Of a stretch of DNA of 51,107 nt, positions 31,408 through 49,405 are shown in pieces. The notes beneath the pieces are model-generated. The model saw nothing but the letters and a program-made list of their open reading frames with translations. It made no database searches and was not told where the DNA came from. Positions within the stretch are counted from its first letter, which is position 1, and each line of letters begins with the position of its first letter. Source of the DNA: Candidatus Omnitrophota bacterium (GTDB lineage Bacteria; Omnitrophota; Gorgyraeia; Pluralincolimonadales; Pluralincolimonadaceae); assembly GCA_003141835.1 (NCBI GenBank), contig PLNR01000005.1, positions 1 through 51,107 on the forward strand. Direction: 5' to 3'. A program made the translations under genes and the position numbers.

Positions 31408-32255
31408 AAGACGCGTATTCGCATCCGGGTTTCTGCGACGTCGCCTACGACTGGGACAGGAGGCCGGAATGCGACTTCATAGAGCGGTGCATCGAGAAAT
31501 ATTCCGGCGCGAAAGTCCGCTCCATCCTTGATATAGCTTGCGGGACCGGCATACACTTGATGGAATTCGCGCGGCGAGGATACGATGCGGCGGGTATAGA
31601 CGCGAGAAGAGAGATGGTCGATTTCGTCCAGAAGAGATCCGCTGCCGAAGGCCTCGACGTAAAATGCGCGCAGGCGGATATGAAGAGGTTCGACATTGGA
31701 CGCAGGTTCGGATGCGCTATCTGCATGCTCGATTCATTCAGGTACCTGTTGACCGACAAAGATATATTATCCCACCTAAGATCCGTCTCCGCTTCACTCG
31801 AGGACGGCGGGATCTATGTCATAGACCTCTGGATGCCGGAGGACGACCGCATCGGAGGATGGGAAGACCTCCGCTGGACCCAATCCCGCGGGAATATCCG
31901 CGTCGACGCGAGGTATCTCCAGCACGGGGAGACTTTTAACCCGGGAGAGAAGACATTCGATGACGAGCTCATATTCAAGGTGACCGGCCCTTCGGTCAAC
32001 TCTACCCTGAACTCGAGGGCGAAGACCAGGGCCCTGCTCTTTTCCGAGTTCCGGGAATTGGCGGAAAGGGGAGGATCGTTCGAGCTGAAGGAAAAATTTT
32101 ATAATTTTGACTTTGATTCCAAAGAGGGCTATAATATTAAATCAATGCCGAATGAAGCAGCTCACAGCAGTGATTCTTCGGCATGCCGGCGCATAACTAG
32201 CCAAGTTACTGCATCCGGCATAAGAACGAACCTGGTCCTCAAAAAACGGAGGTAA
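31404..32255 (+). CDS. Class I SAM-dependent methyltransferase
   Basis: ILDIACGTG motif I, GID, ADM, LEDGGIYVID. Start reassigned to the ATGA overlap at 31404. Confidence 0.88.
   Translation: MKDAYSHPGFCDVAYDWDRRPECDFIERCIEKYSGAKVRSILDIACGTGIHLMEFARRGYDAAGIDARREMVDFVQKRSAAEGLDVKCAQADMKRFDIGRRFGCAICMLDSFRYLLTDKDILSHLRSVSASLEDGGIYVIDLWMPEDDRIGGWEDLRWTQSRGNIRVDARYLQHGETFNPGEKTFDDELIFKVTGPSVNSTLNSRAKTRALLFSEFRELAERGGSFELKEKFYNFDFDSKEGYNIKSMPNEAAHSSDSSACRRITSQVTASGIRTNLVLKKRR
32145..32221. repeat. Tandem REP-like palindromes inside the methyltransferase ORF
   Basis: ATGCCGAA(32145)...TTCGGCAT(32184) and ATGCCGG(32183)...CCGGCAT(32221), each with additional inner pairing. Confidence 0.7.
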
Positions 32256-32604: not shown

Positions 32605-32785
32605 CGGTACGAAAAAGTTCGATTGCTGTGTCCAGTGCAAGATGTTCTGGGATTGCAGTACCCGCCCGGACAACTTGGCCAGGGAGGGGGAGAGCCATTG
32701 CTGTTCCTCTTGCGGAAATTTCGAATTATGCAGGATAGTTAATGAAAAGATAAAAAAGGAAGGCCCTTTATTTACCCGTATCTAA
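32597..32785 (+). CDS. Small Cys-rich protein (twin CCxxC-x5-C)
   Basis: CCVQCKMFWDC and CCSSCGNFELC. ATG 32597 overlaps the end of the upstream gene. Confidence 0.6.
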   Translation: MNDGTKKFDCCVQCKMFWDCSTRPDNLAREGESHCCSSCGNFELCRIVNEKIKKEGPLFTRI

Positions 32786-33931
32786 TTTAAACGCCAGCTT
32801 TGAGAGGTCAACGCTCTCTTTTATATGGATGCTTTGCTGTTTTGCGAGGTCGATCGTCTTTATCTCGTCCAGTCTCCTTCCGTTTATATCGAAGACCACA
32901 TTTACAACCGGACGCAAGAGATAATCTTCATGGACTTCCGCTACCTTGCCGATCTCATCGGTATTCAACTTGACCCACGTCCCAATAGGATAGAGGCTGA
33001 CGCGTTTTATCAGGGCCTTGATAACTAACGGCGAGAACTGTTCCGAATTCCTTAATATTTCCCTGATCGCATCATGCGGGAAATATTTATCCCTGTAAGG
33101 GCGGGGGTGCGTCATCGCCTCGTACATATCCGCTAACGCGATGATCTGCGTATATTCATGAGTATCTTCGCCTTTGATGCCATCGGGATAACCCGAGCCG
33201 TCCACCCTTTCATGGGCCTGGTGGGCGATCTTAACGGCGAGCTGCAGTATATCGTCCTTGGGGCCTTTTAAAATATCGGATGAGTAGCAGGTATGTTTTT
33301 TAACCTCATCAAATTCAGTTTCACATAACGGTTTCGGGGTTTCGACCAGGTCCAGGACTTTAACCATCCCCAGGTCATAAAGGTATGACGCTATCCCTAA
33401 TTCCTGGAGTTTGGACTTGTTATAGCCTAATGTTGCCCCAATCAAAAGGGAGAGGATGCAGGCGTTCACGGAATGGCACCACAGGTAGTTCTCGGGTGAG
33501 CACCTGTTTGTTATAACTGCCAGCTCGTGTCCGCCTAAACAGACCTGGTCGACCATCTTCCTGATCACCGGGACCACTTGCTGGCAATCGAAAGGTTCGT
33601 CGTTTTTTACCTTAACGAAGATATCCTTTATCAGGTTATACGCTTCCTCGTAAATTTGGGAGGACTCTTCCTTATCTTCTTTCATCTTATTTATCGCTTT
33701 TGAGATCTGGACCTGGTAGGTCGGTTCTTCCTTTTTGGATTCTTTGCGGTCCATCTCCTTTATTGCCTGCGCGAGTTTAAGGTAAGATTGTTCCGTCTTT
33801 TTTTCTTCTTGTTTTTCTGCCGGCTCCTCTTTCTTCTCCTCAATTTTCTTATCTTCAACCGGGGTTTTCGGCGGTTCGGGTTTTTTTGAGATTTTTTGCG
33901 TAAGTTTTATTAAGTCTGAGAGCCGTATCAT
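32768..33931 (-). CDS. HD-GYP domain protein with a degenerate HD dyad
   Basis: HSVN, HERVDGSGYP, ADMYEAMTHPRPYR present; the expected LHD reads LYD. Confidence 0.88.
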   Translation of the reverse strand: MIRLSDLIKLTQKISKKPEPPKTPVEDKKIEEKKEEPAEKQEEKKTEQSYLKLAQAIKEMDRKESKKEEPTYQVQISKAINKMKEDKEESSQIYEEAYNLIKDIFVKVKNDEPFDCQQVVPVIRKMVDQVCLGGHELAVITNRCSPENYLWCHSVNACILSLLIGATLGYNKSKLQELGIASYLYDLGMVKVLDLVETPKPLCETEFDEVKKHTCYSSDILKGPKDDILQLAVKIAHQAHERVDGSGYPDGIKGEDTHEYTQIIALADMYEAMTHPRPYRDKYFPHDAIREILRNSEQFSPLVIKALIKRVSLYPIGTWVKLNTDEIGKVAEVHEDYLLRPVVNVVFDINGRRLDEIKTIDLAKQQSIHIKESVDLSKLAFKLDTGK

Positions 33932-34743
33932 CTTTTTACGACGCCAAAGTCCTCGGCTACTTCCTGCATGATCTTTTCATCCACGTTCTGCGCTTTGGCC
34001 ATCATGCCCACTATCAACCCCATATCGCAGAGGTTGTTCACCCTTCTCGGGATCCCTTCGGAGGCTTCATAGATGACTTTACAGGCGTCATCGGTAAAGA
34101 TCTCGTTTTCCCTGCCGGCTATCGTGCAGCGATGGATGATATACTGCCTCATCTCTTCATAGTCTAATTTATTCAGGTGATATCTTATGGCGAGCCGTTG
34201 TTCAAGCTGGGGGATCTTGTAAACCTTCTCTTTGAGTTCCGGCTGGCCGACGAGGATAAGGGTAAGGAGGAACCTGTTGTTCAACTGGAAATTAAGAAGC
34301 AGCCTTAATTCCTCAAAGACCTCGGGCCTGTCGATCGCCTGCGCCTCGTCAATGATGATCACGGTTTCCACGTCGTTATTCAAGTCGGCGTATAATTTTT
34401 CGTTTAACATATGGAGCAGTTGCAGTTTGCCGCCGACCACGTCCGTGCCTTCAATTTGGAATAATATCTCCCTCAGGAAATCCCGGGGGGAAAGTTTCGG
34501 GTTTACGATCAAAGCGACTTTATACTTGGAATCCTTCTTAGTGAGTTCCGAGATAAGCACGCGGCTTAAGATGGTCTTGCCGCTTCCGTATTCGCCCGTA
34601 AGCAAGGCGGCGCCTTTTCTTTCCCTTACGGCGTAGAACATGCGCATGAGCGCCTCTTCGTGTTTCGGGGAATGGTATAAAAAACGGGGATCGGGTACGT
34701 TCTCGAAAGGTTTTTCTTTAAGCTTCCAATATTCCTCGTACAT
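33928..34743 (-). CDS. ExeA/GspA-family AAA ATPase
   Basis: MYEEYW.L...PF...PDP.F N-terminus, Walker A GEYGSGKT, Walker B IIIDEAQ, LVGQPEL, GIPRRVN. Confidence 0.9.
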   Translation of the reverse strand: MYEEYWKLKEKPFENVPDPRFLYHSPKHEEALMRMFYAVRERKGAALLTGEYGSGKTILSRVLISELTKKDSKYKVALIVNPKLSPRDFLREILFQIEGTDVVGGKLQLLHMLNEKLYADLNNDVETVIIIDEAQAIDRPEVFEELRLLLNFQLNNRFLLTLILVGQPELKEKVYKIPQLEQRLAIRYHLNKLDYEEMRQYIIHRCTIAGRENEIFTDDACKVIYEASEGIPRRVNNLCDMGLIVGMMAKAQNVDEKIMQEVAEDFGVVKR

Positions 34744-34745
34744 CG

Positions 34746-35765
34746 TTACCTCGTCGCCTTTTTACCGGCGACCATTAAAGCAGCAATGAGGATAAAGATT
34801 ATGGATATCTGCACCAAAATCAGTATAGCATGAATCAAGGGTGCTTTCAATAAAACAATTGCGCTGATCCCAAGCGATAAGCTTACAAAATAGATAAATA
34901 TCGTTGCTTTCAACGGGCTGAAACCCATGTCCAGGAGGCGATGGTGGAAATGGTCCCTTCCGGTATACTCCAGCCATTCCTTGAAATTTTTTACTTCCCC
35001 GTGCCTGACCCGCATGATCGTCGTGAAGATAACATCGAAGATCGGGACGCCCAGGATCAGGACCGGCACGACAAGCGCCACCTCATTATTGTATGCCCAA
35101 TCCCCTAAAACAGCAAAGCCGGCCAAAATAAAGCCTAAAAAATTGCTGCCGGCGTCGCCTAAAAAAATATTGAAAGGCCTCAGGTTATATATTAAAAATC
35201 CCAAACAGGCGCCTAAGGCGGCCAATGTTAACGCTATAATGGCCGGCTGGCCGGTCAATATGGCGATTACCAGAAAACAGGCCAAAACTATTGCGCTGAC
35301 CCCGGTCGCCAGCCCGTCCAAGCCATCCAGGAAATTCATGGCGTTAGTTATGCCGACGACCCAAAATATCGTCAGCAATATTTCCGCCATATCTCCCCAT
35401 AGGGTAGGAGGAAAGAACGACAGGCAGACGCCGTATTTTATTATTATTACCGATGCAATGACCTGGATTATAAGCCTGAATAGCGCGGATAGCCCTTTTA
35501 TGTCGTCGATCAGCCCGACGAGCATGACCAGGCTCCCGCCTAAGACCAGCCCCTTTATTTCGGTCTGCCGCGGCCCGGCGTATAGAAGCGCGATCAAGAA
35601 AGAAGCCCAGACAACGACCCCGCCCAAAAGGGGCACGGGGGTTTTGTGGATCTTTCTCTTGTTAGGATAGTCTAATATCTTAAAACGCCCGGCAATTAAT
35701 TTCGCGAGGGGGGTCAGGATAATGGCGGCTAAAAAAGAGGCCAGGAACAGGACCAGCGGCTTCAT
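34746..35765 (-). CDS. WecA/TagO-like polyprenyl-phosphate HexNAc-1-phosphate transferase (MraY family)
   Basis: RKIH..PVP.LGG, GLIDD, NAMNFLDGLDGLA, IFLGDAGS, DHFHHRL. Confidence 0.92.
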   Translation of the reverse strand: MKPLVLFLASFLAAIILTPLAKLIAGRFKILDYPNKRKIHKTPVPLLGGVVVWASFLIALLYAGPRQTEIKGLVLGGSLVMLVGLIDDIKGLSALFRLIIQVIASVIIIKYGVCLSFFPPTLWGDMAEILLTIFWVVGITNAMNFLDGLDGLATGVSAIVLACFLVIAILTGQPAIIALTLAALGACLGFLIYNLRPFNIFLGDAGSNFLGFILAGFAVLGDWAYNNEVALVVPVLILGVPIFDVIFTTIMRVRHGEVKNFKEWLEYTGRDHFHHRLLDMGFSPLKATIFIYFVSLSLGISAIVLLKAPLIHAILILVQISIIFILIAALMVAGKKATR

Positions 35766-36376
35766 ATCTTTAGCAACAACCGGTGGGACTTGAAACCTTC
35801 GGCGTATTTTACCCTTGCTTGCGCTCCCCTGAAGGCCGCCCAGGACTTTACGGTCCCTAAAATGTTTGAATTATGGTTCGGCGTTTTTTTGATCTGTGAA
35901 CGGTGGGACCTTAGCAGTTTTATCTTGGCGTCCAGGGTGCCGCTTATGTCTATGAAAATATTGGGGTCAAGGCCCTGGCTGCCAGGTAATTCATAATGGA
36001 GGACATTTTTTATGAACCGGGCCGCCGCAAGGCTCGCTTTTCCGGCATTCCTATGGTCCTGGTGAATGTCATCCGGATAACAGGTAAAGACGATGTCCGG
36101 GTGGATCTTATCGAGGATATCCTCGATAAAGGAGATGAGCGGCTGTCCTTCGGGGATCATCGCGTCGGAGAAATCTCCCCAGTATATCTTTTTTGGTTTC
36201 AGGAGCCTTGCCGATTTCTCCTGCTCCTTCGTCCTTAATGCCGGGTTACCTCCCGCCTCACCCCTGCTTAGGACCAGAAGGTATATCTTGTGCCCGCTCC
36301 TGGAATATTTTGTTAAAGCCCCGCCGCAGCCGAATTCAATGTCATCCGGATGCGCCCCGATCGCTAATATATTCAT
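35762..36376 (-). CDS. PIG-L/LmbE-family deacetylase
   Basis: AHPDDIE and HQDH motifs. Confidence 0.92.
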   Translation of the reverse strand: MNILAIGAHPDDIEFGCGGALTKYSRSGHKIYLLVLSRGEAGGNPALRTKEQEKSARLLKPKKIYWGDFSDAMIPEGQPLISFIEDILDKIHPDIVFTCYPDDIHQDHRNAGKASLAAARFIKNVLHYELPGSQGLDPNIFIDISGTLDAKIKLLRSHRSQIKKTPNHNSNILGTVKSWAAFRGAQARVKYAEGFKSHRLLLKI

Positions 36377-37064
36377 GTTCGAGTTTTCCCGAGAGTATAG
36401 ACAGGCTTTTTTGCCCGTAGTTAAAGATCAGGTCCATTATCGACATATACGGTATGAACGGGTGATATAATTGGTTATACGCGGGATGAGTGAAATCCTG
36501 GAATTTGAGCTTTATCTTCTCTTTGGTGAATTTTGCCGCGTCGATATAATCGTATGCGCCGGTCCCGGACAGGTACGTGTCGGCGTTCAAGCACTTGCAA
36601 ATGTTGATCAACCTGTCGGTGCTGTTGCCGTCGATCTTCAAATGAGAGGCAAAATATATCTTCCGTTCGATACCCAGGTAACTCAGTATATATTTTGTTA
36701 TGAAGATATTCAGGTCGACCAACCTGTCCCAGCGCTTGAAGTATACCGCGTCGAGGAACGGGCCGTGCTCTTTAAAATGTTTTGCCCTGTTGTAATTTAT
36801 TTTAATGCTCTGCCAGTGCTTGTGCTGCCAGCAGACTTTGTTGTTTATCTCGACTTCGTTCAAGGCCTGCCCGAAATGCCCTTTTGTTATGACCGGGACG
36901 GTCAGCCAGATCCAGCCGTCCTTTGTCCTTATCCGGTTCCTGTTCTGGAAGCTGCCCTTGGCGAACTGGACGTTATCGAGCAGGACGAAACTCTCGGCGC
37001 TCTCTATTTTGTCGAAATAGCCGAGCCAGGGCAAATATTGAGGCTGATGGATAGAGATATTCAT
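36342..37064 (-). CDS. WbqC-family protein
   Basis: IHQPQYLPWLGYF, QNRNRI, WLTVPV, YLSG, MSIMDLIFN. Start reassigned to ATG 37064. Confidence 0.9.
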   Translation of the reverse strand: MNISIHQPQYLPWLGYFDKIESAESFVLLDNVQFAKGSFQNRNRIRTKDGWIWLTVPVITKGHFGQALNEVEINNKVCWQHKHWQSIKINYNRAKHFKEHGPFLDAVYFKRWDRLVDLNIFITKYILSYLGIERKIYFASHLKIDGNSTDRLINICKCLNADTYLSGTGAYDYIDAAKFTKEKIKLKFQDFTHPAYNQLYHPFIPYMSIMDLIFNYGQKSLSILSGKLEHEYISDRGASG

Positions 37065-37083
37065 CTTTTTGCGAATAATACGC

Positions 37084-37112
37084 ATTATGATTAGAAAACG
37101 TCCCCTTGTCAA
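37084..37112 (-). promoter_or_regulatory. Sigma70-type promoter for the wbqC operon
   Basis: Minus strand TTGACA-17 bp-CATAAT. Confidence 0.7.
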
Positions 37113-37182
37113 GAAAAAAAGGCCGAAATCCGAGATCGGGCCCGTTGTGTGCCCGGCCGGCGGCGGTGATATTTTTCGCTCC

Positions 37183-37211
37183 TTGACAATCATGCGTATT
37201 TTATGTATAAT
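37183..37211 (+). promoter_or_regulatory. Consensus sigma70 promoter for the giant protein/RiPP operon
   Basis: TTGACA-17 bp-TATAAT, perfect consensus; AAGGAG RBS before ATG 37258. Confidence 0.8.
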
Positions 37212-37257
37212 TATACAGCGAAAATAGTTAGGAAGATCTTAAGGAGAGCGGATTTGC

Positions 37258-40200
37258 ATGATAGTTAGGCGTAGGTCTAACAAGAAAAAGGGATTTTTTA
37301 ACGAGATAAGGGCGGGATATTTTCCCGCCCTTTTGCTTTTTGCGGCGGTATTTTCGCTGGTTGCCGTCAGCAATGAGGCCGTTGCGGGCGCCCTCGGCCT
37401 CGTATTAAATGGAGATTTTGAAGAAGGCAGCACGGGAGGATTAGGCACGATCACTAGCTGGAACAGCTGGGGCGGCAGCGGCTACCATCACAACGATTAT
37501 AACCATACGATCAGCGGTTCAAAGGCGGTAAAGATCTGGTGGGATGACTCCGGCATATGGCAGAATTTTGCCGTAAGCGCTAGTACGGATTATTACTTTA
37601 ATGCTTATTTTTATAATCTATCTACCGACCCCTTGCACATTTGGAAGGGGTACCTTAAAGTCGAGTGGTATTTATCAGATGGATCTACGAAGATCTCGGA
37701 AGATACGATAGGCTTGCTTTATCCGGATGGTACCGATCCTTATAATATTTGGAAAAATGTATCCGCAAAAATTACGTCACCGGCCACTGCCGCTTACGGC
37801 AGGCCGGTCTTTGGGGTAAAAGACTGGACCTCGGCCGGCCCTTCGGGGGCGGTAAGCTTAGATGATCTGTATGCCGGCACATCCGCTCCGTCGGGACCCA
37901 CTGTGGGAGGCACCGCCTACACCGATGACACTGAGGCTACACCAATAGCCAGCGCGCCCGTTAAAGTGATCGTCTACGACAGCTCGTTGTCCAGGACGTC
38001 CATTTTTACGGCCACAACAAACGGCAGCGGCGTCTATTCCGTGACCCTGCAAAGCGGAGAGCTCGGCGCCGGCGATATAATCTGCGCCTACCTCGACGGC
38101 AGCGATAAGGCTACCTCCGTCTATAGGTGCGGGGGCACAAGCAACGTATCCAACCTAAACCTTTATAAAAACAATGTCGTCGTGTTTAATAACGACACAA
38201 CCGACATGACAAACGATGACCTTTACAAGGTTGACGACGGTAATGCAAATATACTCTATTCCGTCTCCGCCGCCTCAAGCGGCAACCTCACCGTCGACAG
38301 CAATATCGAACTCTTCCTCGAAGGCTCGAGCTCTAAAACCTTCGCCCCGGGAGGCAGTGTGACCCTCCAGGGCACAGGGGCCTTGAAGATAGAGTCAGGG
38401 GCGACGTTGAGCATGGCAAGTTTTGCCCTCACAGTCCCGGATAACTTGACAAACGCAGGCACCATAACCCAAACATCTTCAGGCACTACGACCCTCACAG
38501 GCACAACCAAGACCGTAACAGGCGGCGGCTCGACAACGTTCTATAACCTGACAGTGTCGGGCACGTATACCTTAAGTACCAACATAAAGGCATCCAATAC
38601 CCTGACCATAGACGACAATAAATACCTGTCAGTAAATGCGTCAAGCGCCTCAGTGACGGTCGAGGTCGGGGGAAGCATAGTAAATAACGGGAACGCTGCC
38701 GGCGAAGGCATAGTCCTTGCGAATTCGACCAATTCGATAATAATAAAGGGCTCGGCAGGCGCCAAGAGGGCCCTTACCAACAATAACATCGACTTTAACG
38801 GTAAGACCGTCCACCTCGATAACATGGACGTCCAGGTGGCGACTAACCTAGGTGCGGCAGGCGACACCATAGTCCTCGACTCAGCCTGCGAGTTCGACGA
38901 TATGACGGTCAACCCCGGCACGCTTAATAACTCGGGAGGCTACGATTTAACGGTAAGCGGCAGCTGGGAGGTCTCCGGCACGGGGACTTTCACGCCGGGC
39001 ACAGGCACAGCCTCGGTGAGCTTAACCGGCACAGCCAAGAACATAACCACCACCTCCAGTAATTCCTGCGCCTTTTATAACCTGGTCGTCTCAGGCAGTT
39101 ATACCCTGCAATCGTCTATAGGGGTGGCCCATAATATGACGATCAGCAGTACGGGCACCCTGGATGCCTCTAATAAGACTATCACCCTGACGGGCAGCGC
39201 GGGCAATTTTGATGTTGAGGGTACCTTCACTTACGGCACTTCTACGGTTGTCATACAGGCAACAGGCGATATCCAGGGCGCAGCCAGCGGCGGTACTTTT
39301 AAAGCCGGATTTTATAATTTGACTATCGGTAAAGTGTCGGCGACCCCGACTGTAACAGTCACCGCCGGCGGCACGTGGGAAGGCATACAGGTTTATCATA
39401 CCCTGACCATACTATCGGGAGCCACTCTTACCGGCGTCGCCGACAGAAAAGTCCAGATGCTAAACGGCTCGACGGTAGTCAACAGCGGCACGTGCAACCC
39501 GGTAGAGTTCGAGTTTAACCTTGGCAGCAGCGCAGGCACCGCCACCATGGGCGGCGGCAGTTACACAGGCGACCACATCCAGATCGTCCAGGGCACAGTG
39601 ACCCTGGCCGGGGCCGTGACCGCCTCTTATGAGTGGAGAATAGGTTATTGGCAATCTAACTCGCCCGGTGTCCTTAACCTTAATGGTTATAATCTTACAT
39701 CCTCAGGAAGTATTATCCTCGGGCAACATACATTCGGGGACCAGGTAGGCCAGCTAACCACCGGTTCGGGAAGCATAACTGCGCTCAACCTTTTTGTAAA
39801 CGAGACGATAACCAGCGGCGGCGACCACTGTTCTATTACCGTGGGAAGCGGCAGTGTTTGCACTTTTTCAGGAGCAGTTTTGACCCACGCGAACGGCATC
39901 ATTACAAATAACGGTTCGATCATTTGCGGAAATTTCACTAACGAGAGCGGCGGTACCTATACCGCCAATACCGCAAGCTGTTCCATATCCTGCGCGGATT
40001 TCACCAATGACGGGACGTTTACCAACAGCCAGACCAATACCGTATCCGCCTCGGGAAATGTGGCAATAACCGCTTTCGGCGCCACAACCACCAAGAACAC
40101 CCTTACCATGACAGGCGACGGCAAATACATAAATTCCAGCGCGAATCTGGGCAATCTCGTCAATAACGGCGGTACCACCGGCAGCAGGAATTATATCCAT

Positions 40201-43200
40201 ACCAATAACCTGGTCCTCGACGGGACGTTTACAAACAACTCCGGGAAATATTTTACCACCCTTGACGACGACGCCTTGACCAGCAGGAACCTCACTACCG
40301 GCGCCGGCGGCGTAAACGGCACGATAAGTATAAACGGCCCTTTCTACGCGAACGCCTCGACGATAACCATTGACGACGCCGCAACAGGCAACTTCGATGT
40401 GAACGTACAGGCTAATTTTCAATGGGGCACTTCTCTCGTCGACCTTAAGGGCACGGGCTCGATAATCGGCCATAGCCACTACATAACTTTCAATAGTTTG
40501 ACCTGCGGCTATGCCGGCAAGACTACTTCGATCAACATGGGCGCCGACTGGATGGGCTTCGATATCCATGGGACGTTGACCGTCGGGACAGGCGTTCTCC
40601 AGCAAAGCATCGCTAATCAAAAGATTTTTGTATACGGCGCTACGATCGTAAACAGCGGCACAATTTACGTGACGGAGCTTTGGTTCGACTTAGCCGCCCC
40701 CACCATCATGAATGGCGGGGATCTATCGACCACCCAGATATTTATTGCCAACGGCGCCACATTGACCCTTACCGGGAACGTGACCCATTCCGGAAATTGG
40801 CAGACAGGCCATCAGGGCCAGAATACGACTAACGTCCTTAACGTCAACCAGTACAATATTGTAAGTTCGGGATGGTTCGACGCGGGAGAATGGAACCTGA
40901 CCGAATTTGCATGCGTAGGCCAGGTGAACGTTACGACAGGCAACATCACGGTAGGATTGGATATGCATGTATATCCCAGAAAAAACGGCTCTGATGTCTC
41001 TTCCATTAATTTAGGAAGCGGCACTCACAGCATCGGGCTTGAACTTGGTATTGTAACGAGCGGCACCGTCCCTGAATCCACCGCAAATGGCGTGCTCACT
41101 CTTTCAAGCGCCACAACCACCGTAGGGGGGAATTTTAAGAACCTGGGGACTTCCGCCCAGGTCATCGCCAACGGCGGCACGCTCATATTTAACGACAATA
41201 CCAGGACCTCTACCATATACGGAAGCAGCTCATTTTATAACCTGACCTGCGCGACCGCGGGCAAGACATTGCTTTTTAATGTGGAAACGGGCCTTAATAA
41301 TTACATCACGACCGTCACCCGCAACCTGAATTTTTCCGGCAGCTCGGGTACAGGCAACAAGATCACTCTGGGCCGTTCGGACGGAAGCGGTTCACAGCAA
41401 TGGGCCATATATCCGGCGGGTTCTAAGGGCGCCTCGCCCGGTTGGACGGTTGCGTACGTGGATGTGTCGAATTCCGTAAACCTCAATAGCAATTATATCA
41501 ATCCCGATAATTCCAACGACGGCGGGAATAACAGCAACTGGTTTTCTCCGACCCTGGTCAAATTATCGGCTTTTTACGCCATCGGTTATTTTGACAAGGT
41601 GGGGGTATATTGGAAGACGGCCTCGGAATACAATAACGCGGGTTTTAATGTTTACGTAAGCGAGAATCCCGGCGGCCCGTATAAGAAGCTGAATCCCGCG
41701 TTGATCGCCGGCCTGGGCACATCCACTACCGGAGGGGAATATTCATATACCGATACCGGCATAATAAACAAAAGGACTTATTATTATAAACTGGAGGACG
41801 TGGAATTAAGCGGCCGCTCAAAGATGCACGGGCCGGTAGCGGCCCATCCGGGCCTGGATTCGGACGGCGACGGTATGACTGACGATTGGGAGACCTATTA
41901 CGGGCTTGACCCGCATAATCCCAACGACGCCTTGCTTGACCCGGACGGCGACGGGCTCACTAATTTAGATGAATTTTTGAAGGGTACGGACCCGACACAA
42001 AAAGATGAAGAGGCGCAGGAGGGAGTGCGCATAATCAGTTCGGACGAAACAGGCATAACCCTGGAGCTCGTAACCTCAGAATTTAAAGCGACTCCTAAAA
42101 AAATAGACAAAGTCACATACCAGGTCCTTAAGATCCCCGGATATGAGCACGGGTATACCGACGAACCGGGAAAGCCCCAAATGCCGCTCAAGCCGGTCCT
42201 CTTGGGTATCCCGCAAGACGTATCCTGCGCTATTGCGGACCTGGACCTTGATGTGACCGAGCTGTCCGGATACAATATCTATCCTGTCAGGAGTTCCCGC
42301 CTTGTAGACGACCTAAGGAAAACAATGGCCGGAAAAGAAGACCTGAAAGCGGAAAAACCAGTGTTCAAAAAGATAGAATCACATCTCGTAATAGACGAGA
42401 AATTTTATTCCACGGATACTTATTATCCTGCCGATATAGTCAGCCTCGGGTTTGTGGGAGATATGAGAGGCCAAAGAACGGCTTGCGTGGACATCTCCCC
42501 GCTGGTTTTCAACCCGGCCCAGCACAGCTTAAAATTTTATAAAAGGATAAAGTTCAAATTGCAATTTAAGAGTGCCGAAGCCGGTCCTCCGATAGGGCCG
42601 CCCCCGTCTTCGCCGAGCCTGGATGCCAAGATAAAGATATACACAACGAAAGAAGGATTGTGCCGGATAGGATGGGACGCGCTTTGGAATGCCAAATTTT
42701 ATGATGCCATCTGGCTGGATCCGCGCAAGATAAGGCTTTATAACAAGGGCCAGGAAGTGGCAATACGCATCGCCGGGGAAGAGGACGGGAGGTTCAATAG
42801 CGACGACTACATCGAATTTTACGCCCAGGCCAATAATTCAAAATATTCAACGGAGAACGTCTATTGGCTCACCTACACCCAGGGAAAAGGCCTGAGGATG
42901 GAGAATATTCCCAGTAGCCCCGGTGTCCCGGTCGCGGTCCCGGACAGGTATAGGGCGAAAGTGCACCTCGAGAAGAACGATTTTTACTGGGGTGAGCGCG
43001 AAGGCCCCGAAGATATCGACCGCTGGTTCTGGAGCAGCTACATCTGGGGAGGTACCGAGGTCAATTACCCTATAGGCCTTAAGGATGTAAACCCCCTCCA
43101 TCCGGGAGACGAAGCGAGAGTGAAGATCGCCTATTATGCCCTGTTTGACGTCGACCATCATACGTTGTCCCGCCTGAATGGCGGGACCGTCAATGATGCG

Positions 43201-44922
43201 TCATGGACGGGCCAATGTGAGCATGTGGCGGAGGTGAGCGTGCCGCAGAACGTTCTCGCCGAGGGGGGTAATACCATAACCCTGGCGGCGCAACTTGCCC
43301 CGGGGACAGAATATGACTTGCTTGTGCCCAATTATTTTGAGGTGGAGTACTGGCGGAATTTCGTCGCGTCCGACAATGCCCTGGATTTTTCTTACAGGCC
43401 GGTTGGCGGCGGAGTGACAGAATTTAATATATCCGGGTTTACGAAAGATAATGTCGAATTATTTGATATAACCGAACCGGCCAGGGCCAGGTACGTTACC
43501 GGGTCCGAGACCGTATTCCAACCGAACGGTTCATATTCGCTGGTATTTAAATACGATTTTAAACCGGATGAAGGGAAGAGGTTCCTCGCCTTGACCCCGG
43601 ATAAAGCGGATCCGGCCGGGCGCTTAAAGATCTACGCGCCTTCGGGCCTCTCTTCACCGGAAAACAAGGCCGATTATATAATGATCTCGTACGGGGCCTT
43701 TAAAGACAACCTCTACCCCCTTAAGAGATTGTATGAAAGGAAGGGGCTAAGCGTCAGCGTGGTCGACGTAGAGGATGTATACGATGAGTTTAATTACGGC
43801 CTAATGAGCCCCTATGCGATAAAGGATTTTTTAAGGTACGCCTATAATACATGGCAGCGCCCGGCGCCTACATACGTGCTTCTGGTCGGAGACGCAAATT
43901 ACGATTACAGGGATAACCTGGGTTCCGGAAAAATAAACTACGTCCCCGCTTATCTTTTGCCCAACACGCCGTATCTGGGCGAGACCGCTTCGGACAACTG
44001 GTTCGTATGCTTGGACCCTCCCCAGCTTATCGCCGGTCAGGTCCAGGATGATGTATTGCCGGATATGTTCATCGGCAGGATCCCCGCGAGCGGGAAGGAT
44101 GAGGTCGATAACGTGGTCAAAAAGATCATAGATTATACCTCCCTGCCTTACAGGTATCAGAGCAAAAAAGTCACTTTTGCGGCAGATGACGAGGCTATCT
44201 TTGAACAGACCTCTGATAACCTGGTGCAATACCTGCCCGGGAACATGATCCCGTCGAAATTATATCTTTCCGGCTATACGGATTATTCGCGGTTTACCCG
44301 GGACCTGATAAACGAGATCAATAGCGGCACGGTCTTGCTGAATTACGCAGGACACGGCTCGACCAACCTTTGGACCGAGGAGGAATTATTTAATACGGGC
44401 ACGGTCGGCCTGTTAAATAATTACCGCAAGTATCCCTTTGTCGTCTCCTTCGATTGCCTGGACGGTTATTTCCTTGACCCGGACGACGGGTTTAGGTCTA
44501 TGGCCGAGGTGTTTTTAAATAAAAAAGATGCCGGCGCGATCGCCTGTTTTTCTCCTACGGGCATGGGAATGCCGGAAGGGCAGCAAGCCTTAAGCGAAGA
44601 ATTATTTAAGTCGATCTTTGTGGACGGTAATTACAGGCTCGGCCCGGCCACGACCCGGGCGAAGATCAACTTTTATTCCAGGATGGGAGGGCAGTATAAG
44701 GACCTGATAGAGACGCAGACTCTCTTCGGAGACCCGGCCTTGTCTTTAAAGACGGGAGTAAAAGAGGAGAAGAAGTGGCGGAAGAAATCATTGGGCCGGC
44801 AGCCCCTGGCGGTTTCCTCAGACGATGATTTTAAGGACATCCTCCAGCAGCTTATGCAAAACGCCAAAGATAGCGGGAAATGGGGCAACGGTTTTAAAAG
44901 ATCCAGAAGGCCGGAAGACTAG
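37258..44922 (+). CDS. 2554-aa secreted protein: CBM-like head, beta-helical repeat stalk, Ig/Fn3-like module, Ca-binding repeats, propeptide and C25 (gingipain/PorU-family) peptidase
   Basis: Signal peptide; NGDFEEG head; G/T/S/N-rich repeats (FYNLT); DSDGDG/DPDGDG; VEDVYDEFNYG, YVLLVGDA, SDNWF, PDMFIGRIP, YAGHGS (His2366), SFDCLDG (Cys2400), LFGDP. Confidence 0.88.
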   Translation: MIVRRRSNKKKGFFNEIRAGYFPALLLFAAVFSLVAVSNEAVAGALGLVLNGDFEEGSTGGLGTITSWNSWGGSGYHHNDYNHTISGSKAVKIWWDDSGIWQNFAVSASTDYYFNAYFYNLSTDPLHIWKGYLKVEWYLSDGSTKISEDTIGLLYPDGTDPYNIWKNVSAKITSPATAAYGRPVFGVKDWTSAGPSGAVSLDDLYAGTSAPSGPTVGGTAYTDDTEATPIASAPVKVIVYDSSLSRTSIFTATTNGSGVYSVTLQSGELGAGDIICAYLDGSDKATSVYRCGGTSNVSNLNLYKNNVVVFNNDTTDMTNDDLYKVDDGNANILYSVSAASSGNLTVDSNIELFLEGSSSKTFAPGGSVTLQGTGALKIESGATLSMASFALTVPDNLTNAGTITQTSSGTTTLTGTTKTVTGGGSTTFYNLTVSGTYTLSTNIKASNTLTIDDNKYLSVNASSASVTVEVGGSIVNNGNAAGEGIVLANSTNSIIIKGSAGAKRALTNNNIDFNGKTVHLDNMDVQVATNLGAAGDTIVLDSACEFDDMTVNPGTLNNSGGYDLTVSGSWEVSGTGTFTPGTGTASVSLTGTAKNITTTSSNSCAFYNLVVSGSYTLQSSIGVAHNMTISSTGTLDASNKTITLTGSAGNFDVEGTFTYGTSTVVIQATGDIQGAASGGTFKAGFYNLTIGKVSATPTVTVTAGGTWEGIQVYHTLTILSGATLTGVADRKVQMLNGSTVVNSGTCNPVEFEFNLGSSAGTATMGGGSYTGDHIQIVQGTVTLAGAVTASYEWRIGYWQSNSPGVLNLNGYNLTSSGSIILGQHTFGDQVGQLTTGSGSITALNLFVNETITSGGDHCSITVGSGSVCTFSGAVLTHANGIITNNGSIICGNFTNESGGTYTANTASCSISCADFTNDGTFTNSQTNTVSASGNVAITAFGATTTKNTLTMTGDGKYINSSANLGNLVNNGGTTGSRNYIHTNNLVLDGTFTNNSGKYFTTLDDDALTSRNLTTGAGGVNGTISINGPFYANASTITIDDAATGNFDVNVQANFQWGTSLVDLKGTGSIIGHSHYITFNSLTCGYAGKTTSINMGADWMGFDIHGTLTVGTGVLQQSIANQKIFVYGATIVNSGTIYVTELWFDLAAPTIMNGGDLSTTQIFIANGATLTLTGNVTHSGNWQTGHQGQNTTNVLNVNQYNIVSSGWFDAGEWNLTEFACVGQVNVTTGNITVGLDMHVYPRKNGSDVSSINLGSGTHSIGLELGIVTSGTVPESTANGVLTLSSATTTVGGNFKNLGTSAQVIANGGTLIFNDNTRTSTIYGSSSFYNLTCATAGKTLLFNVETGLNNYITTVTRNLNFSGSSGTGNKITLGRSDGSGSQQWAIYPAGSKGASPGWTVAYVDVSNSVNLNSNYINPDNSNDGGNNSNWFSPTLVKLSAFYAIGYFDKVGVYWKTASEYNNAGFNVYVSENPGGPYKKLNPALIAGLGTSTTGGEYSYTDTGIINKRTYYYKLEDVELSGRSKMHGPVAAHPGLDSDGDGMTDDWETYYGLDPHNPNDALLDPDGDGLTNLDEFLKGTDPTQKDEEAQEGVRIISSDETGITLELVTSEFKATPKKIDKVTYQVLKIPGYEHGYTDEPGKPQMPLKPVLLGIPQDVSCAIADLDLDVTELSGYNIYPVRSSRLVDDLRKTMAGKEDLKAEKPVFKKIESHLVIDEKFYSTDTYYPADIVSLGFVGDMRGQRTACVDISPLVFNPAQHSLKFYKRIKFKLQFKSAEAGPPIGPPPSSPSLDAKIKIYTTKEGLCRIGWDALWNAKFYDAIWLDPRKIRLYNKGQEVAIRIAGEEDGRFNSDDYIEFYAQANNSKYSTENVYWLTYTQGKGLRMENIPSSPGVPVAVPDRYRAKVHLEKNDFYWGEREGPEDIDRWFWSSYIWGGTEVNYPIGLKDVNPLHPGDEARVKIAYYALFDVDHHTLSRLNGGTVNDASWTGQCEHVAEVSVPQNVLAEGGNTITLAAQLAPGTEYDLLVPNYFEVEYWRNFVASDNALDFSYRPVGGGVTEFNISGFTKDNVELFDITEPARARYVTGSETVFQPNGSYSLVFKYDFKPDEGKRFLALTPDKADPAGRLKIYAPSGLSSPENKADYIMISYGAFKDNLYPLKRLYERKGLSVSVVDVEDVYDEFNYGLMSPYAIKDFLRYAYNTWQRPAPTYVLLVGDANYDYRDNLGSGKINYVPAYLLPNTPYLGETASDNWFVCLDPPQLIAGQVQDDVLPDMFIGRIPASGKDEVDNVVKKIIDYTSLPYRYQSKKVTFAADDEAIFEQTSDNLVQYLPGNMIPSKLYLSGYTDYSRFTRDLINEINSGTVLLNYAGHGSTNLWTEEELFNTGTVGLLNNYRKYPFVVSFDCLDGYFLDPDDGFRSMAEVFLNKKDAGAIACFSPTGMGMPEGQQALSEELFKSIFVDGNYRLGPATTRAKINFYSRMGGQYKDLIETQTLFGDPALSLKTGVKEEKKWRKKSLGRQPLAVSSDDDFKDILQQLMQNAKDSGKWGNGFKRSRRPED

Positions 44923-44939: not shown

Positions 44940-45782
44940 ATGAAAAGAGAGCTTAAAATAGAGGTCGCTAACCATGTCGTGGGCCTCAACATCGATGAAG
45001 AGCGCCACCCGTCTTTTATAAAAGACGTCCTTGGGGCGTATAATATGTTCATTTCCGGCGCTGAGCCGACGATCTCCGTCGATGTAGAGTTAACCGGCGA
45101 TGCGCCTCCGGAATACTTCCCTTCTTCAAGGCTCATTTTTGAAAATAACACTATTGCCATAGAAGATGACTGTCTTTTAGGCAGTTTAGACCTGAAAAAA
45201 AAGCGCGGCCGGATAAAATTAAATCCCGTAAATCCCCTGTATCCGCTGGGCACATTCCTGAGGAATGTTTATACGTTTTTGGTGGTACTGGAAGACAAAG
45301 GGGTAGCCCTGCACGCAGTTGGCGTATTGGAAGAGGAAGAGGCGCATGTATTTATCGGTCCGTCAACCGCGGGCAAGTCCACCGTGGCGAGCCTCTCCCC
45401 GGGCAAAGTCATCCTGAGCGACGACCTGATACTTGCCAAAAAAGTTAACGGAGAATTTAAAGTTTTTCCTACCCCGGCCTGGGGCGACAGGCAAACAGGG
45501 CCGAGGCGGAACAGGCCTTACCGGATAAAGAATTTGTTTAAATTAATAAAAGACAAGACGGTGTACCTGGAAAAATTCTCGCCCGCGTATGCCTTGGCGA
45601 ATATATTTACCGTACCCCATATACCGGCTGAATTGATCCCAGAGGACGAGTTGCTGACTACATTTTCAGAACTTTTATCCGCTGTGCCGTGTTATGGGAT
45701 GCATTTCCTGCCGGAGCCGTCGTTCTGGCGGCATATCGAAGGGCTTAAACCTGAAATAGAGTTCTCAAAGAGAGAGAGTTGA
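44940..45782 (+). CDS. HPr-kinase-related P-loop protein
   Basis: LHAVGV, FIGPSTAGKST (Walker A) and ILSDD, the HPrK-type signature. Confidence 0.75.
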   Translation: MKRELKIEVANHVVGLNIDEERHPSFIKDVLGAYNMFISGAEPTISVDVELTGDAPPEYFPSSRLIFENNTIAIEDDCLLGSLDLKKKRGRIKLNPVNPLYPLGTFLRNVYTFLVVLEDKGVALHAVGVLEEEEAHVFIGPSTAGKSTVASLSPGKVILSDDLILAKKVNGEFKVFPTPAWGDRQTGPRRNRPYRIKNLFKLIKDKTVYLEKFSPAYALANIFTVPHIPAELIPEDELLTTFSELLSAVPCYGMHFLPEPSFWRHIEGLKPEIEFSKRES

Positions 45783-45784
45783 CC

Positions 45785-46060
45785 ATGGATATGAAGACCA
45801 GGATACCGGCCAGGTCCGGCAAGACCGCTTCAAGGGTCATAGACGGGGAAGCCGTTATAGTCCTTTTGGATAAACAGGAGACCATTGTCTTGAGCGACGT
45901 CGGTTCGCGCATATGGGAGATCATGGACGGCAAGAAGGATATAGGCGAGATCAGCGGCGCGATCATATCGGAATTCGACGCCACGCATGAAGAGGCATTG
46001 AAAGACATTACCGAGTTCGTGGAGGATATGGTACAGAGAGGGGCGGTGGAGGTCAAATAA
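45785..46060 (+). CDS. PqqD-family RiPP recognition element (RRE)
   Basis: RVIDGEAVIV...LSDVGSRIWEIMDG...EFD...DITEFVEDM..RG. Confidence 0.92.
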   Translation: MDMKTRIPARSGKTASRVIDGEAVIVLLDKQETIVLSDVGSRIWEIMDGKKDIGEISGAIISEFDATHEEALKDITEFVEDMVQRGAVEVK

Positions 46061-46061: not shown

Positions 46062-47114
46062 ATGAGAGAAGCCGATAAGGGCCGGGACCAGTATTTAAGG
46101 ATATACCGCAAGACGATGGATAATTCTATCTGCTTCCTTGCCCATTGGGAATTGACCTATAAATGCAACTTGGGATGCAGGCATTGTTACGCCGCCGGAA
46201 GGAAAGACGGTAAGGAATTTTCTTACGAAGAGGCGAGGCCTATCATAGACGAACTCAGGGATATGGGCTGCCTCTATCTCATCTTCAGCGGGGGCGAGAT
46301 CTTGATGAGGGATGATTTTTTCGATATCGCGTCGTATGCGAGAGGGCAGGGTTTCGCGCTGCGGCTGATGACGAACGCCACCCTGATCGACGAAGCTGTC
46401 AGCGAGAAGATAGCGTCTCTCTACCCTTTAGCGGTCGAGACGAGCATATATGCCGCTGATAAGGACCTTCACGATGCCATCACTTCTTCCGCGGGTTCTT
46501 TCGATAAGACGATAAAAGCTGCGAGGCTCCTCAAGGAAAGGAACGTAAGGGTCATCTTTAAATTCCTTATCATGAATGACAATATCGGAGAGTTCAGGGC
46601 CGTAAGATCATTAGCGGGAGAGATCGGCGCGGATTTTGTATTCGATTTTTGCGTCGTAGGCAAAAATGACGGCTCTAAGGCCCCATTAAGATACAGGCTC
46701 GATAAGGAGAAGATCAAAGATTTTTTTATATCGAACGATCTCCCTCTGGGAAAAAAGGAAGCCGATGACGAGGATCTTCTTTGTATCGCGGGCCTTAATA
46801 ATATTTTCATTACGCCCCATCTCGATGTTTATCCCTGTATCGGGCTGGACGTGAAATTAGGCAACCTCCGCGAAGGGAGCCTCAAGGATATATGGCGTTC
46901 CTCGGAGGAATTGAATTTTGTAAGAAACATAAACCTGCCCGACTTGCCGAAGTGCAAAAGCTGCGGCCTCGCTCAATTTTGTTTTAGATGCTCGGGAATA
47001 GCGCTTTCCGAAGATAACGATATTTTAGGGCCGTCGAATTTCGACTGTTCGGTCGCCGCAGCGGTAAGTGAAATTGCGGCGGAAAAAGAGGAGTTGATAA
47101 ACAATGGAAAATAG
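46062..47114 (+). CDS. Radical SAM/SPASM peptide maturase
   Basis: CNLGCRHC, SGGE, and SPASM cysteines (CIAG, VYPC, CKSC, CFRC, C). Confidence 0.93.
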   Translation: MREADKGRDQYLRIYRKTMDNSICFLAHWELTYKCNLGCRHCYAAGRKDGKEFSYEEARPIIDELRDMGCLYLIFSGGEILMRDDFFDIASYARGQGFALRLMTNATLIDEAVSEKIASLYPLAVETSIYAADKDLHDAITSSAGSFDKTIKAARLLKERNVRVIFKFLIMNDNIGEFRAVRSLAGEIGADFVFDFCVVGKNDGSKAPLRYRLDKEKIKDFFISNDLPLGKKEADDEDLLCIAGLNNIFITPHLDVYPCIGLDVKLGNLREGSLKDIWRSSEELNFVRNINLPDLPKCKSCGLAQFCFRCSGIALSEDNDILGPSNFDCSVAAAVSEIAAEKEELINNGK

Positions 47115-47262
47115 CCCGCGTAAAGACAAGAAAAGGCCGTACCGCAAACCGGCCGTCATTTTTTCCAAAAAGATAGAGGTGATATCCACGGTTTGTAATA
47201 CATCCAGGGGAGGCGAAAGCGGTTGCAGGAAAGCAATCCCTTGTTTTCGCCTTCTTTCATAA
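47104..47262 (+). CDS. Putative RiPP precursor peptide (52 aa, not in ORF track)
   Basis: Hand translation: MENSPRKDKKRPYRKPAVIFSKKIEVISTVCNTSRGGESGCRKAIPCFRLLS*. GAGGAG RBS at 47088-47093; YxxPxV leader motif; three Cys in the C-terminal part. Confidence 0.82.
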   Translation: MENSPRKDKKRPYRKPAVIFSKKIEVISTVCNTSRGGESGCRKAIPCFRLLS

Positions 47263-47280: not shown

Positions 47281-47784
47281 ATGACGGAAGCAACGGCGCG
47301 CGTACGGGAATCGTTCTCTATCATGCGTGAGGCCATGATACGAGGGGGGTCTGCGATGAGGCTGCGCGCTAAGGGAGACAGCATGGGCCCGCTGATAAAA
47401 GAAGGGGACGTCATAGTCATAAGGCCCAGCACGTTTGACGAGATTGGGATCGGCGATATAGCCGTGTTTGGCGTCAGGGGTAAGCTGTGCGCCCACAGGC
47501 TTATAATGAAACGCGCCAAGGGCAACCGGCATGTCTTTGTTACGAAATCAGACAGGACTTTTACGGCCGACGCGCCTTTCGGGCATAAAAATTTATTCGG
47601 CAAGATATCCCATATCCAAAAAAACGCGCTGACGTTAAACCTCGAATCGTCCTTTTGGGTGCCGCTCAACCGCGTCCTGGGCTTATATCATTTAATACTG
47701 TGCCAGGCTGCCGTCCGTCTTCGCCTTCTTTACGCTGTATTTAAAAAAGGCGATGCTCAACGGGATGAGCAACGCGGAGAATAG
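47281..47784 (+). CDS. S24/S26-family serine peptidase
   Basis: GDSMGP.IKEGD (Ser), GDIAVF, AHRL (His base), TKSD. Confidence 0.85.
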   Translation: MTEATARVRESFSIMREAMIRGGSAMRLRAKGDSMGPLIKEGDVIVIRPSTFDEIGIGDIAVFGVRGKLCAHRLIMKRAKGNRHVFVTKSDRTFTADAPFGHKNLFGKISHIQKNALTLNLESSFWVPLNRVLGLYHLILCQAAVRLRLLYAVFKKGDAQRDEQRGE

Positions 47785-48498: not shown

Positions 48499-48499
48499 C

Positions 48500-49311: not shown

Positions 49312-49340
49312 ACTATACCACCGCAAAAAGTAATTGGCAA
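49312..49340 (-). promoter_or_regulatory. Sigma70-type promoter for the ABC exporter
   Basis: Minus strand TTGCCA-17 bp-TATAGT. Confidence 0.5.
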
Positions 49341-49366
49341 CCAGTTTATTCGTAATAAGAAAACCA

Positions 49367-49395
49367 TTGAAAGAAAGGCGGGATGCTGTTATAAT
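49367..49395 (+). promoter_or_regulatory. Sigma70-type promoter for the wza-like gene
   Basis: TTGAAA-17 bp-TATAAT. Confidence 0.65.
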
Positions 49396-49405
49396 AGCCG
49401 CTGAG

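Follow-up and report, generated by a model that had tools for sequence, protein, structure and literature searches.

A giant secreted protein that ends in a C25 peptidase module is encoded within a 51,107 nt stretch of DNA from a Candidatus Omnitrophota bacterium (assembly GCA_003141835.1, contig PLNR01000005.1, positions 1 to 51,107 of the forward strand), which is referred to here as the window. The C25 gene is followed by a cassette for a peptide that is made by the ribosome and modified after translation (RiPP), and it is divergent from a minus-strand operon of five genes whose products include a WbqC-family protein and a PIG-L family deacetylase. The source genome (G000) comprises 1.57 Mb in 11 contigs with a completeness of 97.7%, and a sister species of the same genus (G047) was available for comparison. 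Protein families were assigned with Pfam and NCBIfam, and NCBIfam scores were compared with the curated cut-offs. The C25 gene and the genes that follow it are listed below, with S-adenosylmethionine abbreviated as SAM and cut-offs given after the scores.

37258–44922, plus strand: giant secreted protein, 2554 aa, open throughout (Pfam, NCBIfam, alignments)
44940–45782, plus strand: HprK-related kinase-like protein, 280 aa, with P-loop GPSTAGKST (weak match to ScmC, E 1.9e-4; relatives in other loci match HprK_rel_A/B)
45779–46060, plus strand: PqqD-family peptide chaperone (RiPP recognition element; E 2.3e-14)
46062–47114, plus strand: radical SAM/SPASM peptide-maturase-like enzyme (Pfam, NCBIfam)
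47104–47262, plus strand: precursor peptide, 52 aa, with YRKPAV at residues 13–18, Cys31, Cys41, Cys47 and C-terminal Ser52
47281–47784, plus strand: S24/S26 archaeal-type (SipW-like) signal peptidase with serine motif GDSMGP and AHR (sigpep_I_arch, 48.6 bits against 51.85)
47692–49282, minus strand: ABC-2 exporter pair, permease at 47692–48498 and ATPase at 48500–49282 (Pfam, NCBIfam)
49334–50176, plus strand: Wza-like polysaccharide export protein, Poly_export plus SLBB (TIGR03027, 129 bits against 180)
50178–51107, plus strand: PF14907 nucleotidyltransferase (NTP_transf_5) of the PsmN/LppN type, continuing past the end of the window (E 1.1e-52)

The 2554 aa protein begins with a hydrophobic signal or anchor segment, followed by a passenger region (approximately residues 45–1530) of which Thr, Gly, Ser and Asn together make up 46%. 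Neither Pfam families nor internal repeats (by BLAST) were detected in the passenger, and a search of the ESM Atlas gave no usable match; 'adhesin-like' is a descriptive label for this region and not a finding. In the remainder of the protein, the Pfam scan identified a single TSP3 repeat (residues 1534–1555), a Propeptide_C25 domain (1588–1772, E 6.3e-14) and a Peptidase_C25 domain (2140–2497, E 9.1e-82), and it found no adhesin family or C-terminal domain (CTD) family. His2366 and Cys2400 (residues 777 and 811 in the 965 aa C-terminal query) are unchanged in alignments of 23 and of 9 relatives. These residues align with the motifs NYAGHGG and TATCD of PorU (6za2, E 4.3e-13) and with NYTGHGS and VACVNG of RgpB (1cvr, E 2.6e-11), the latter through the catalytic region alone, and we take the aligned His and Cys to be the catalytic residues of both enzymes. 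The original prediction for this locus, made from the DNA letters, had described a C25 peptidase with an intact His/Cys pair behind a long passenger, divergent from wbqC, PIG-L, wecA and exeA genes. This description is confirmed by the Pfam assignments, the invariant residues and the back-to-back arrangement of the genes.

In the sister species (locus L012), the open frame of the C25 gene extends to approximately 3400 aa and the C25 module is approximately 80% identical to that of the window, indicating that the length of the passenger differs within one genus. A terminator-like hairpin (10 pairs, 7 of them G-C) followed by a run of T residues is located at 37308–37332, within the first 75 nt of the C25 open reading frame (ORF) and over the signal-peptide codons. 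This element could be a chance occurrence or an attenuator.

Both the nearest solved structure and the nearest curated model for the C25 module are those of PorU, with which it shares a propeptide-like domain followed by a catalytic domain carrying the His/Cys pair. Nevertheless, the match to the PorU model NF033707 reaches 264.4 bits, where the cut-off is 420, and spans profile positions 59–734 of 1095, leaving the last third of the profile unmatched by the window protein. The two also differ in that the C25 module of the window protein is at the C-terminus, after a passenger of approximately 1500 aa, and in that its basic C-terminal tail shows no type IX secretion system (T9SS) signal. With the gingipains (RgpA, RgpB and Kgp) the catalytic region alone is shared, as the window protein has no T9SS signal domain and no Pfam adhesin domains. 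Searches for SprA, PorV and the T9SS C-terminal signal gave no matches in G000 or G047, whereas the same searches detected SprA in two of the three control genomes, and all three yielded PorV and Por_Secre_tail, each with at least 138 signal domains. The GldM model matched none of the genomes, the three controls included, and is uninformative. Judged from genome sequence, the C25 protein of the window is T9SS-independent, as had been proposed.

Phylogenies of the C25 core, which covered PorU-like and PorU2-like groups and did not include gingipain sequences, likewise separate the window protein from PorU. In a FastTree tree of 178 cores, all 53 rows from loci that carry the peptide cassette fall within one 134-row clade (support 95), which is separate from the proteins named PorU, from a PorU2-like group and from the other Omnitrophota C25 proteins. 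A quick IQ-TREE analysis of 62 rows placed 11 PorU-like rows on one side of a 98% branch from which the window protein is excluded. The comparison with PorU that had been suggested as a check on the locus thus turned out against a PorU assignment.

C25 genes and a radical SAM peptide cassette

Relatives of the C25 module were collected at 102 distant loci, 80 from genomes and 22 from metagenomes, and a locus was counted as cassette-bearing if it carried at least two of five gene types (HprK-like, PqqD, radical SAM, S24 and PF14907). By this definition, 44 of the 102 loci bear the cassette, as do 16 of the 27 that are well flanked, with at least 6 kb on either side of the C25 gene. Counted over 111 locus records, the gene types are represented by HprK-like (41), PqqD (35), radical SAM/SPASM (35), S24 (28) and PF14907 (17). 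The cassette genes recur on the strand of the C25 gene, and the loci that carry them bear the phylum-level labels Chloroflexota, Desulfobacterota, Pseudomonadota, Planctomycetota, Acidobacteriota, Nitrospirota, Coatesbacteria and 'Cytophagia', or approximately nine labels when Omnitrophota is included. There are two main co-directional orders, namely S24, PqqD, radical SAM, small ORF, HprK and C25, and PqqD, small ORF, radical SAM, HprK, C25, S24, PF14907 and ABC-2. The closest relatives, L101 (56%), L103, L104 and L105, have the order of the window (C25, HprK-like, PqqD, radical SAM, precursor), with S24 and/or PF14907 coming next in L101, L103 and L105. The ABC-2 pair also adjoins the cassette in L022, L082, L101, L147 and L148. 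A functional tie between the C25 gene and the cassette peptide, one of several partners that the original prediction had considered for the C25 domain, is supported by this recurrence.

Two other arrangements were seen in the survey. Several of the metagenome loci L111–L115, L118 and L119 have two C25 genes of different tree groups around one cassette, in the order C25, PqqD, radical SAM, HprK, S24, C25. At L016 (G139:C9:22000-41999), in another Omnitrophota genome, a 1438 aa C25 protein is encoded between kdsA/B/C/D with lptC/lptA and three GT9 heptosyltransferase genes, which is a lipopolysaccharide (LPS)-core locus.

Proximity to the cassette might also reflect chance, the giant protein being an ordinary secreted protease or adhesin for feeding on or attaching to other cells that happens to lie in a polysaccharide and peptide island and works with neither the cassette nor the sugar genes. 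C25 peptidases from outside the Bacteroidota carry generic peptidase annotations only, and a dockerin-bearing 'gingipain-like peptidase' of Cloacimonadota is described as degradative in one report (PMC8542988). Other Omnitrophota C25 proteins are encoded in housekeeping contexts, and the cassette is missing from 11 of the 27 well-flanked loci, such as L025, though its sister L059 has it. However, unrelated neighbours would not be expected to yield a co-directional and often abutting pairing of C25 and HprK-like genes that recurs in two orders across approximately nine phylum-level labels, and in the window just 17 nt separate the C25 stop codon from the start of the kinase-like gene. Furthermore, cassette labels cluster on the C25 tree, requiring 27 changes against a mean of 45.9 after shuffling (a value reached in 0 of 500 shuffles), although this measure is inflated by kinship. 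We regard an accidental arrangement as decidedly unlikely.

The precursor peptides of these cassettes have a recognizable pattern. Among 18 aligned homologues, the Tyr, the Pro, the first Cys and the last Cys are invariant, the Tyr is separated from the first Cys by 18–21 residues, and a Ser or Thr is C-terminal in 12. In Omnitrophota-type precursors a basic residue is kept one to three positions past the last Cys. None of six precursor peptides searched against NCBIfam matched a family.

Most of these gene types are also combined in the linear polyphosphorylated peptide (LPP) clusters of Bacillota. In the paper that describes them (Popov et al., Nat Commun, 2026; PMC13381572), LPP precursors have the leader YxxPxVLxHQxIxFETxxS and the clusters encode a discrete recognition protein (RRE), a SipW-type leader peptidase, an NTP transferase, an exporter and an HprK-like kinase that polyphosphorylates a serine. 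The clusters are embedded in capsular polysaccharide loci, and the paper states that LPPs are restricted to Bacillota. With LppA/B/K/S/D/N the window shares a YxxPxV leader, a discrete PqqD-type protein, an HprK-like kinase, a SipW-like peptidase, PF14907, an exporter and the polysaccharide-locus setting. The window differs in its added radical SAM/SPASM enzyme and three-Cys core, in having an ABC-2 pair where LPP clusters have an MsbA-like pump, in its Omnitrophota host, and in being joined to a giant C25 gene and a WbqC/PIG-L block. The LPP definition in that source, which admits phosphorylation as the only primary modification, does not extend to the window cassette with its radical SAM/SPASM gene and three-Cys core. 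By analogy, then, the cassette encodes an LPP-like pathway to which a radical SAM/SPASM enzyme and a core rich in Cys have been added. The terms 'radical SAM' and 'C25' are both absent from the main text of the LPP paper (PMC13381572), and our literature search found no paper on C25 paired with such a cassette or on an LPP-like cassette with radical SAM. The SynChlorMet system (Scm, TIGR04248–04251) also has PqqD-like, HprK-like ScmC-type and radical SAM/SPASM proteins in one cassette, but the window proteins score far under the cut-offs for ScmC (20.8 against 125), ScmD (38.6 against 100) and ScmE (79.5 against 400).

If the cassette proteins act as their characterized relatives do, the PqqD protein would bind the YxxPxV leader of the 52 aa precursor, the radical SAM enzyme would cross-link the three cysteines, and the HprK-like kinase would phosphorylate a serine, which is probably that at the C-terminus. 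Addition of a sugar to this phosphate would be promoted by the PF14907 transferase; in a study of a related lasso peptide (PMC6993621), the NTP transferase PsmN is required for the phosphate on the C-terminal serine to receive a hexose. The SipW-like signal peptidase is the probable leader peptidase, and after removal of the leader by this enzyme the ABC-2 pair would export the finished peptide. The 2554 aa protein is predicted to be a Sec-exported surface protein with a PorU-like module, one of a large set of non-T9SS C25 proteins encoded repeatedly beside the cassette. Its most likely place of action is extracytoplasmic, together with the exported peptide, which it may cut or attach, or by which it may be controlled.

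A narrower role would be that of a dedicated second protease, which trims the exported and modified peptide (removing a follower or residual leader) and thereby activates it at the surface. Other ribosomal peptides are known to be activated outside the cell by a second protease. Such trimming would be consistent with the C25–cassette linkage, as is the broader role given above, and with the basic residue near the last Cys of Omnitrophota-type precursors. On the other hand, a surface protein of 1000–2500 aa would be an extravagant trimming enzyme, and many cassettes have no C25 gene, as HprK-like genes are present in 29 of the 201 Omnitrophota genomes sampled and C25 in six. Moreover, the SipW-type peptidase already removes the leader in LPP biosynthesis (PMC13381572). 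We consider a dedicated trimming function unlikely.

The divergent WbqC operon

The minus-strand operon and the intergenic gap that separates it from the C25 gene consist of the following features, where GlcNAc is N-acetylglucosamine.

37065–37257, no strand: divergent intergenic gap, 193 nt (wbqC start taken as Met44)
36342–37064, minus strand: WbqC-family protein, 240 aa, putative ATP-dependent ligase with a sugar amine as substrate (Pfam WbqC, E 5e-80)
35762–36376, minus strand: PIG-L family de-N-acetylase (Pfam, E 3.2e-25; best NCBIfam match BshB1, 108 bits against 182.5)
34746–35765, minus strand: polyprenyl-phosphate GlcNAc-1-phosphate transferase family (Glycos_transf_4, E 3.6e-36; WecA, 123.6 bits against 326)
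33928–34743, minus strand: AAA_22 ATPase, ExeA-like (best NCBIfam match TIGR03015, an XrtA/PEP-CTERM-associated ATPase, 229 bits against 324.5)
32768–33931, minus strand: HD_5 (HD-GYP-like) protein, final gene of the operon (Pfam)

The start of wbqC was revised from that of the listed ORF (36342–37193, 283 aa) to Met44, which is the most likely start codon because 22 relatives begin with M..IHQP.YLPWLGYF. The names 'exeA' and 'wecA' denote family-level likeness, with scores under the curated cut-offs. Three sigma-70-like sites were found in the divergent gap where 0.7 would be expected. One of these, on the plus strand at 37183–37211, is a perfect TTGACA-17-TATAAT (12/12) facing the C25 gene, and another, on the minus strand at 37112–37084, matches at 11/12 positions and faces wbqC. 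The HD_5 gene also accompanies the ATPase gene in L139, L148 and L104.

An exosortase was considered as a partner for the ExeA-like ATPase and was rejected for G000, in which PF09721 has no match and the ATPase itself falls under the TIGR03015 cut-off. The window genome is in these two respects unlike PEP-CTERM/exosortase systems, for whose PEP-CTERM cargo no search was made. In G047, PF09721 has two matches, compared with none in G000, and a TIGR03015-like ATPase is present in both genomes.

A search with an AlphaFold model of the WbqC protein, built from 22 sequences (pLDDT 92, pTM 0.88), against 48,161 solved chains returned BshC of Bacillus subtilis (4wbd_A) as the top structural match (Z 14.6, root-mean-square deviation 3.1, 219 of 240 residues). 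Further matches were class I lysyl-tRNA synthetase (Z 12.0), glutamyl-tRNA synthetases (8.4–9.4), pantothenate synthetase (7.5) and MshC (7.3). The other searches with this protein were negative: Foldseek gave nothing at E ≤ 0.001 (the best row being BshC at 1.4e-2), the WbqC profile had no matches among Protein Data Bank (PDB) sequences, and Pfam returned the WbqC family alone at E values up to 10. Given the BshC-like fold of the model and the adjoining PIG-L deacetylase, the WbqC protein fits a role in acylating the amine of a glucosamine at the expense of ATP, in the manner of bacillithiol and mycothiol synthesis. Since a WecA-like transferase, a PIG-L protein whose best match is BshB1 and a WbqC protein with a BshC-like predicted fold are encoded in one operon, a glucosamine that is N-acylated or aminoacylated is a plausible product.

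The Bsh and Msh pathways (BshA/BshB/BshC and MshA/MshB/MshC) share with the operon the sequence of GlcNAc transfer, a PIG-L family deacetylase and an enzyme with the BshC fold, which for WbqC is predicted. The operon differs in that its transferase is of the membrane WecA type and not the BshA type, and in that WbqC, only half as long as BshC, has no match to it at the sequence level. To our knowledge, the ligase activity of BshC itself has not been reconstituted. By the logic of BshB and BshC, to which fold and family point, GlcNAc-phosphate would be transferred to a carrier, its N-acetyl group removed and the amine re-acylated at the expense of ATP.

Conservation of this operon next to C25 genes is limited. 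Among the 201 Omnitrophota genomes, WbqC is present in 58 and C25 in six, and the two overlap in G000 and G047 only, both from this genus; G047 retains the entire arrangement, as expected within one genus. No C25 gene is found within approximately 6 kb at any of 20 WbqC loci of the phylum, of which approximately nine have PIG-L beside WbqC and one (L139) has the five-gene block of the window. At the distant C25 loci, WbqC and PIG-L are present in the flanks at 2 of 102 (L077 and L116), and 20 of the 32 genomes with a C25-plus-cassette locus have no WbqC at all. WbqC copies on the C25 contig of three cassette genomes were considered and rejected, as the contigs have different lengths and neither C25 nor the cassette is near those copies. 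The original prediction had named a lack of conserved linkage between the C25 domain and the glycan genes as grounds for refutation and had looked to co-occurrence of C25 with WbqC for support; linkage proved to be rare and co-occurrence within the phylum to be confined to one genus.

In a model drawn from that prediction, the WecA, PIG-L and WbqC proteins would build an amine-bearing, aminoacylated sugar on a lipid-linked glycan, and the C25 module would be a sortase-like transpeptidase that cuts its own passenger or other proteins and joins the new C-terminus to the amine without a T9SS. A precedent exists in the linking sugar of the T9SS, for which the study by Veith et al. (mBio, 2020; PMC7468200) has VimE removing the N-acetyl group and VimA adding an amino acid to the amine, creating an acceptor for the C25 sortase; amino-acid-modified sugars in PEP-CTERM/exosortase loci are also raised there as speculation by the authors. 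Placement of a WbqC protein with a BshC-like fold beside a BshB-like deacetylase mirrors VimE and VimA, in that N-acetyl removal and a proposed amine acylation are paralleled. Compared with the Wbp/Vim system, however, PIG-L and WbqC stand in place of CE4 and FemAB-like proteins, the window showed no identifiable Wbp genes, and C25 lacks a conserved genomic link to the sugar genes.

Several other observations are in keeping with a transpeptidase, namely the absence of a T9SS from the genome, the position of PorU as closest solved structure and curated model, the back-to-back promoter-like sites (12/12 and 11/12), which suggest possible co-regulation, and the presence of WbqC and PIG-L within 10 kb of C25 in this genus, L077 and L116, which are unrelated lineages. 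These are opposed by the counts given above (2 of 102 C25 loci, 0 of 20 WbqC loci and 20 of 32 C25-plus-cassette genomes), by the exclusion of the window protein from the PorU branch, by its lack of the last third of the PorU profile, and by the fact that no candidate sorting signal for substrates was identified. In addition, the sugar block occurs beside the cassette in the absence of C25 in L146, L147 and L148. The proposal as a whole appears very unlikely to us. Of its amine-bearing glycan acceptor, a modified amino sugar stays plausible on the evidence of the WbqC fold and PIG-L, whereas the conserved association of C25 with glycan genes falls away.

The three loci without C25 have the following contents. 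L148 carries PIG-L, WbqC, GT4, ATPase, HD, S24, HprK, PqqD, radical SAM, precursor, methyltransferase, PF14907 and ABC-2 genes, and L147 carries WbqC, PIG-L, PqqD, HprK, radical SAM, precursor, PF14907, HprK and ABC-2 genes. L146 (G183:C63:20000-39999, approximately 7885–19957) is a single minus-strand operon of overlapping genes with housekeeping flanks, which encodes a glycosyltransferase, WbqC, PIG-L, a DegT aminotransferase, a CxxCxxCC protein, two radical SAM/SPASM enzymes, an HprK-like protein, an MsbA-type pump, PqqD, an S24-like protein and PF14907; no polysaccharide export genes are present in it, and a motif scan found no precursor ORF. Because the sugar block adjoins the cassette without C25 in these three Omnitrophota genomes, we read the adjacency of C25 and glycan genes as indirect, with the cassette as the hub that has gained the C25 gene and, separately, the WbqC block. 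The two would thus be neighbours because both attach to the cassette, and not because they form a dedicated pair.

Other genes near the operon deserve mention. Just beyond its end, at 30418–32255, a D-Ala-D-Ala-ligase-like ATP-grasp gene and an overlapping methyltransferase gene are found, which are kept in G047. The methyltransferase has a weak match to a daptide-type RiPP methyltransferase, and L148 also has a methyltransferase gene after its precursor gene; the two products may be additional tailoring enzymes. A second WbqC copy in G000 (L129, G000:C8:98929-99573) has no PIG-L, GT4 or cassette genes nearby. Elsewhere in the window, a co-directional sugar-utilization block at 16301–29744 encodes CBM11-like proteins, a GH35/GH42 beta-galactosidase, a glucoamylase-like protein, a ROK regulator, two solute-binding proteins, a GH94 phosphorylase and two ABC permeases.

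A proposed three-module model and its significance

The explanation that we consider probable, though well short of certain, is that the locus has three modules centred on an LPP-like radical SAM peptide pathway, in which the C25 giant is an extracytoplasmic partner and the WbqC block provides sugar tailoring or a glycan add-on. The operon for the WbqC, PIG-L, WecA-like, ATPase and HD proteins would be a second, independent addition to the cassette that is common in Omnitrophota.

Several points weigh against this model. The roles of the cassette enzymes were all assigned by analogy with characterized relatives, and the curated NCBIfam scores of the cassette proteins are all under the cut-offs. 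The 11 well-flanked loci without a cassette have been noted above, and within the Omnitrophota most HprK-like loci are without C25. Four of the six Omnitrophota genomes with C25 encode proteins of another architecture in housekeeping contexts, with the C25 module N-terminal and followed by Ig-like, PKD or FG-GAP domains, and one of these four has its gene among LPS-core genes. The 62-row IQ-TREE analysis has no single split for the cassette-linked rows, the smallest split that holds them also taking in the PorU2-like group and other Omnitrophota C25 proteins. Removal of the leader is already covered by LppS in the LPP pathway (PMC13381572), leaving the C25 enzyme without an assigned step. Finally, three lineages independently have WbqC and PIG-L near C25, which exceeds what would be expected by chance, and three-way cooperation could lie behind this.

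Under such cooperation, the cassette would make a cross-linked peptide bearing a phospho-linked glucosamine, PIG-L and WbqC would deacetylate and then aminoacylate the sugar, and C25 would transfer its passenger or other surface proteins onto the amine. All three modules are found together in this genus, L077 and L116, which would represent the complete form of the system. We judge this scheme to be highly improbable. If it were true, however, it would constitute a T9SS-independent, peptide-borne counterpart of the linking sugar of anionic LPS (A-LPS).

The three-module model, with the cassette as its hub, has implications for each of the families involved. The BshC-like fold hands a testable function to WbqC, a widespread family of O-antigen loci whose function is unknown, and it suggests that some cassette peptides carry an acylated amino sugar. 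The cassette takes the LPP family, described in 2026, beyond the Bacillota, with radical SAM chemistry and two optional partners. C25 peptidases have been known from gingipains and PorU, and here a large, T9SS-independent set of them appears to be wired to a ribosomal-peptide cassette across many uncultured phyla. If it is true that the protease couples proteins or peptides to a sugar of this kind, bacteria with neither sortases nor a T9SS would have a route of attachment to the surface that is new.

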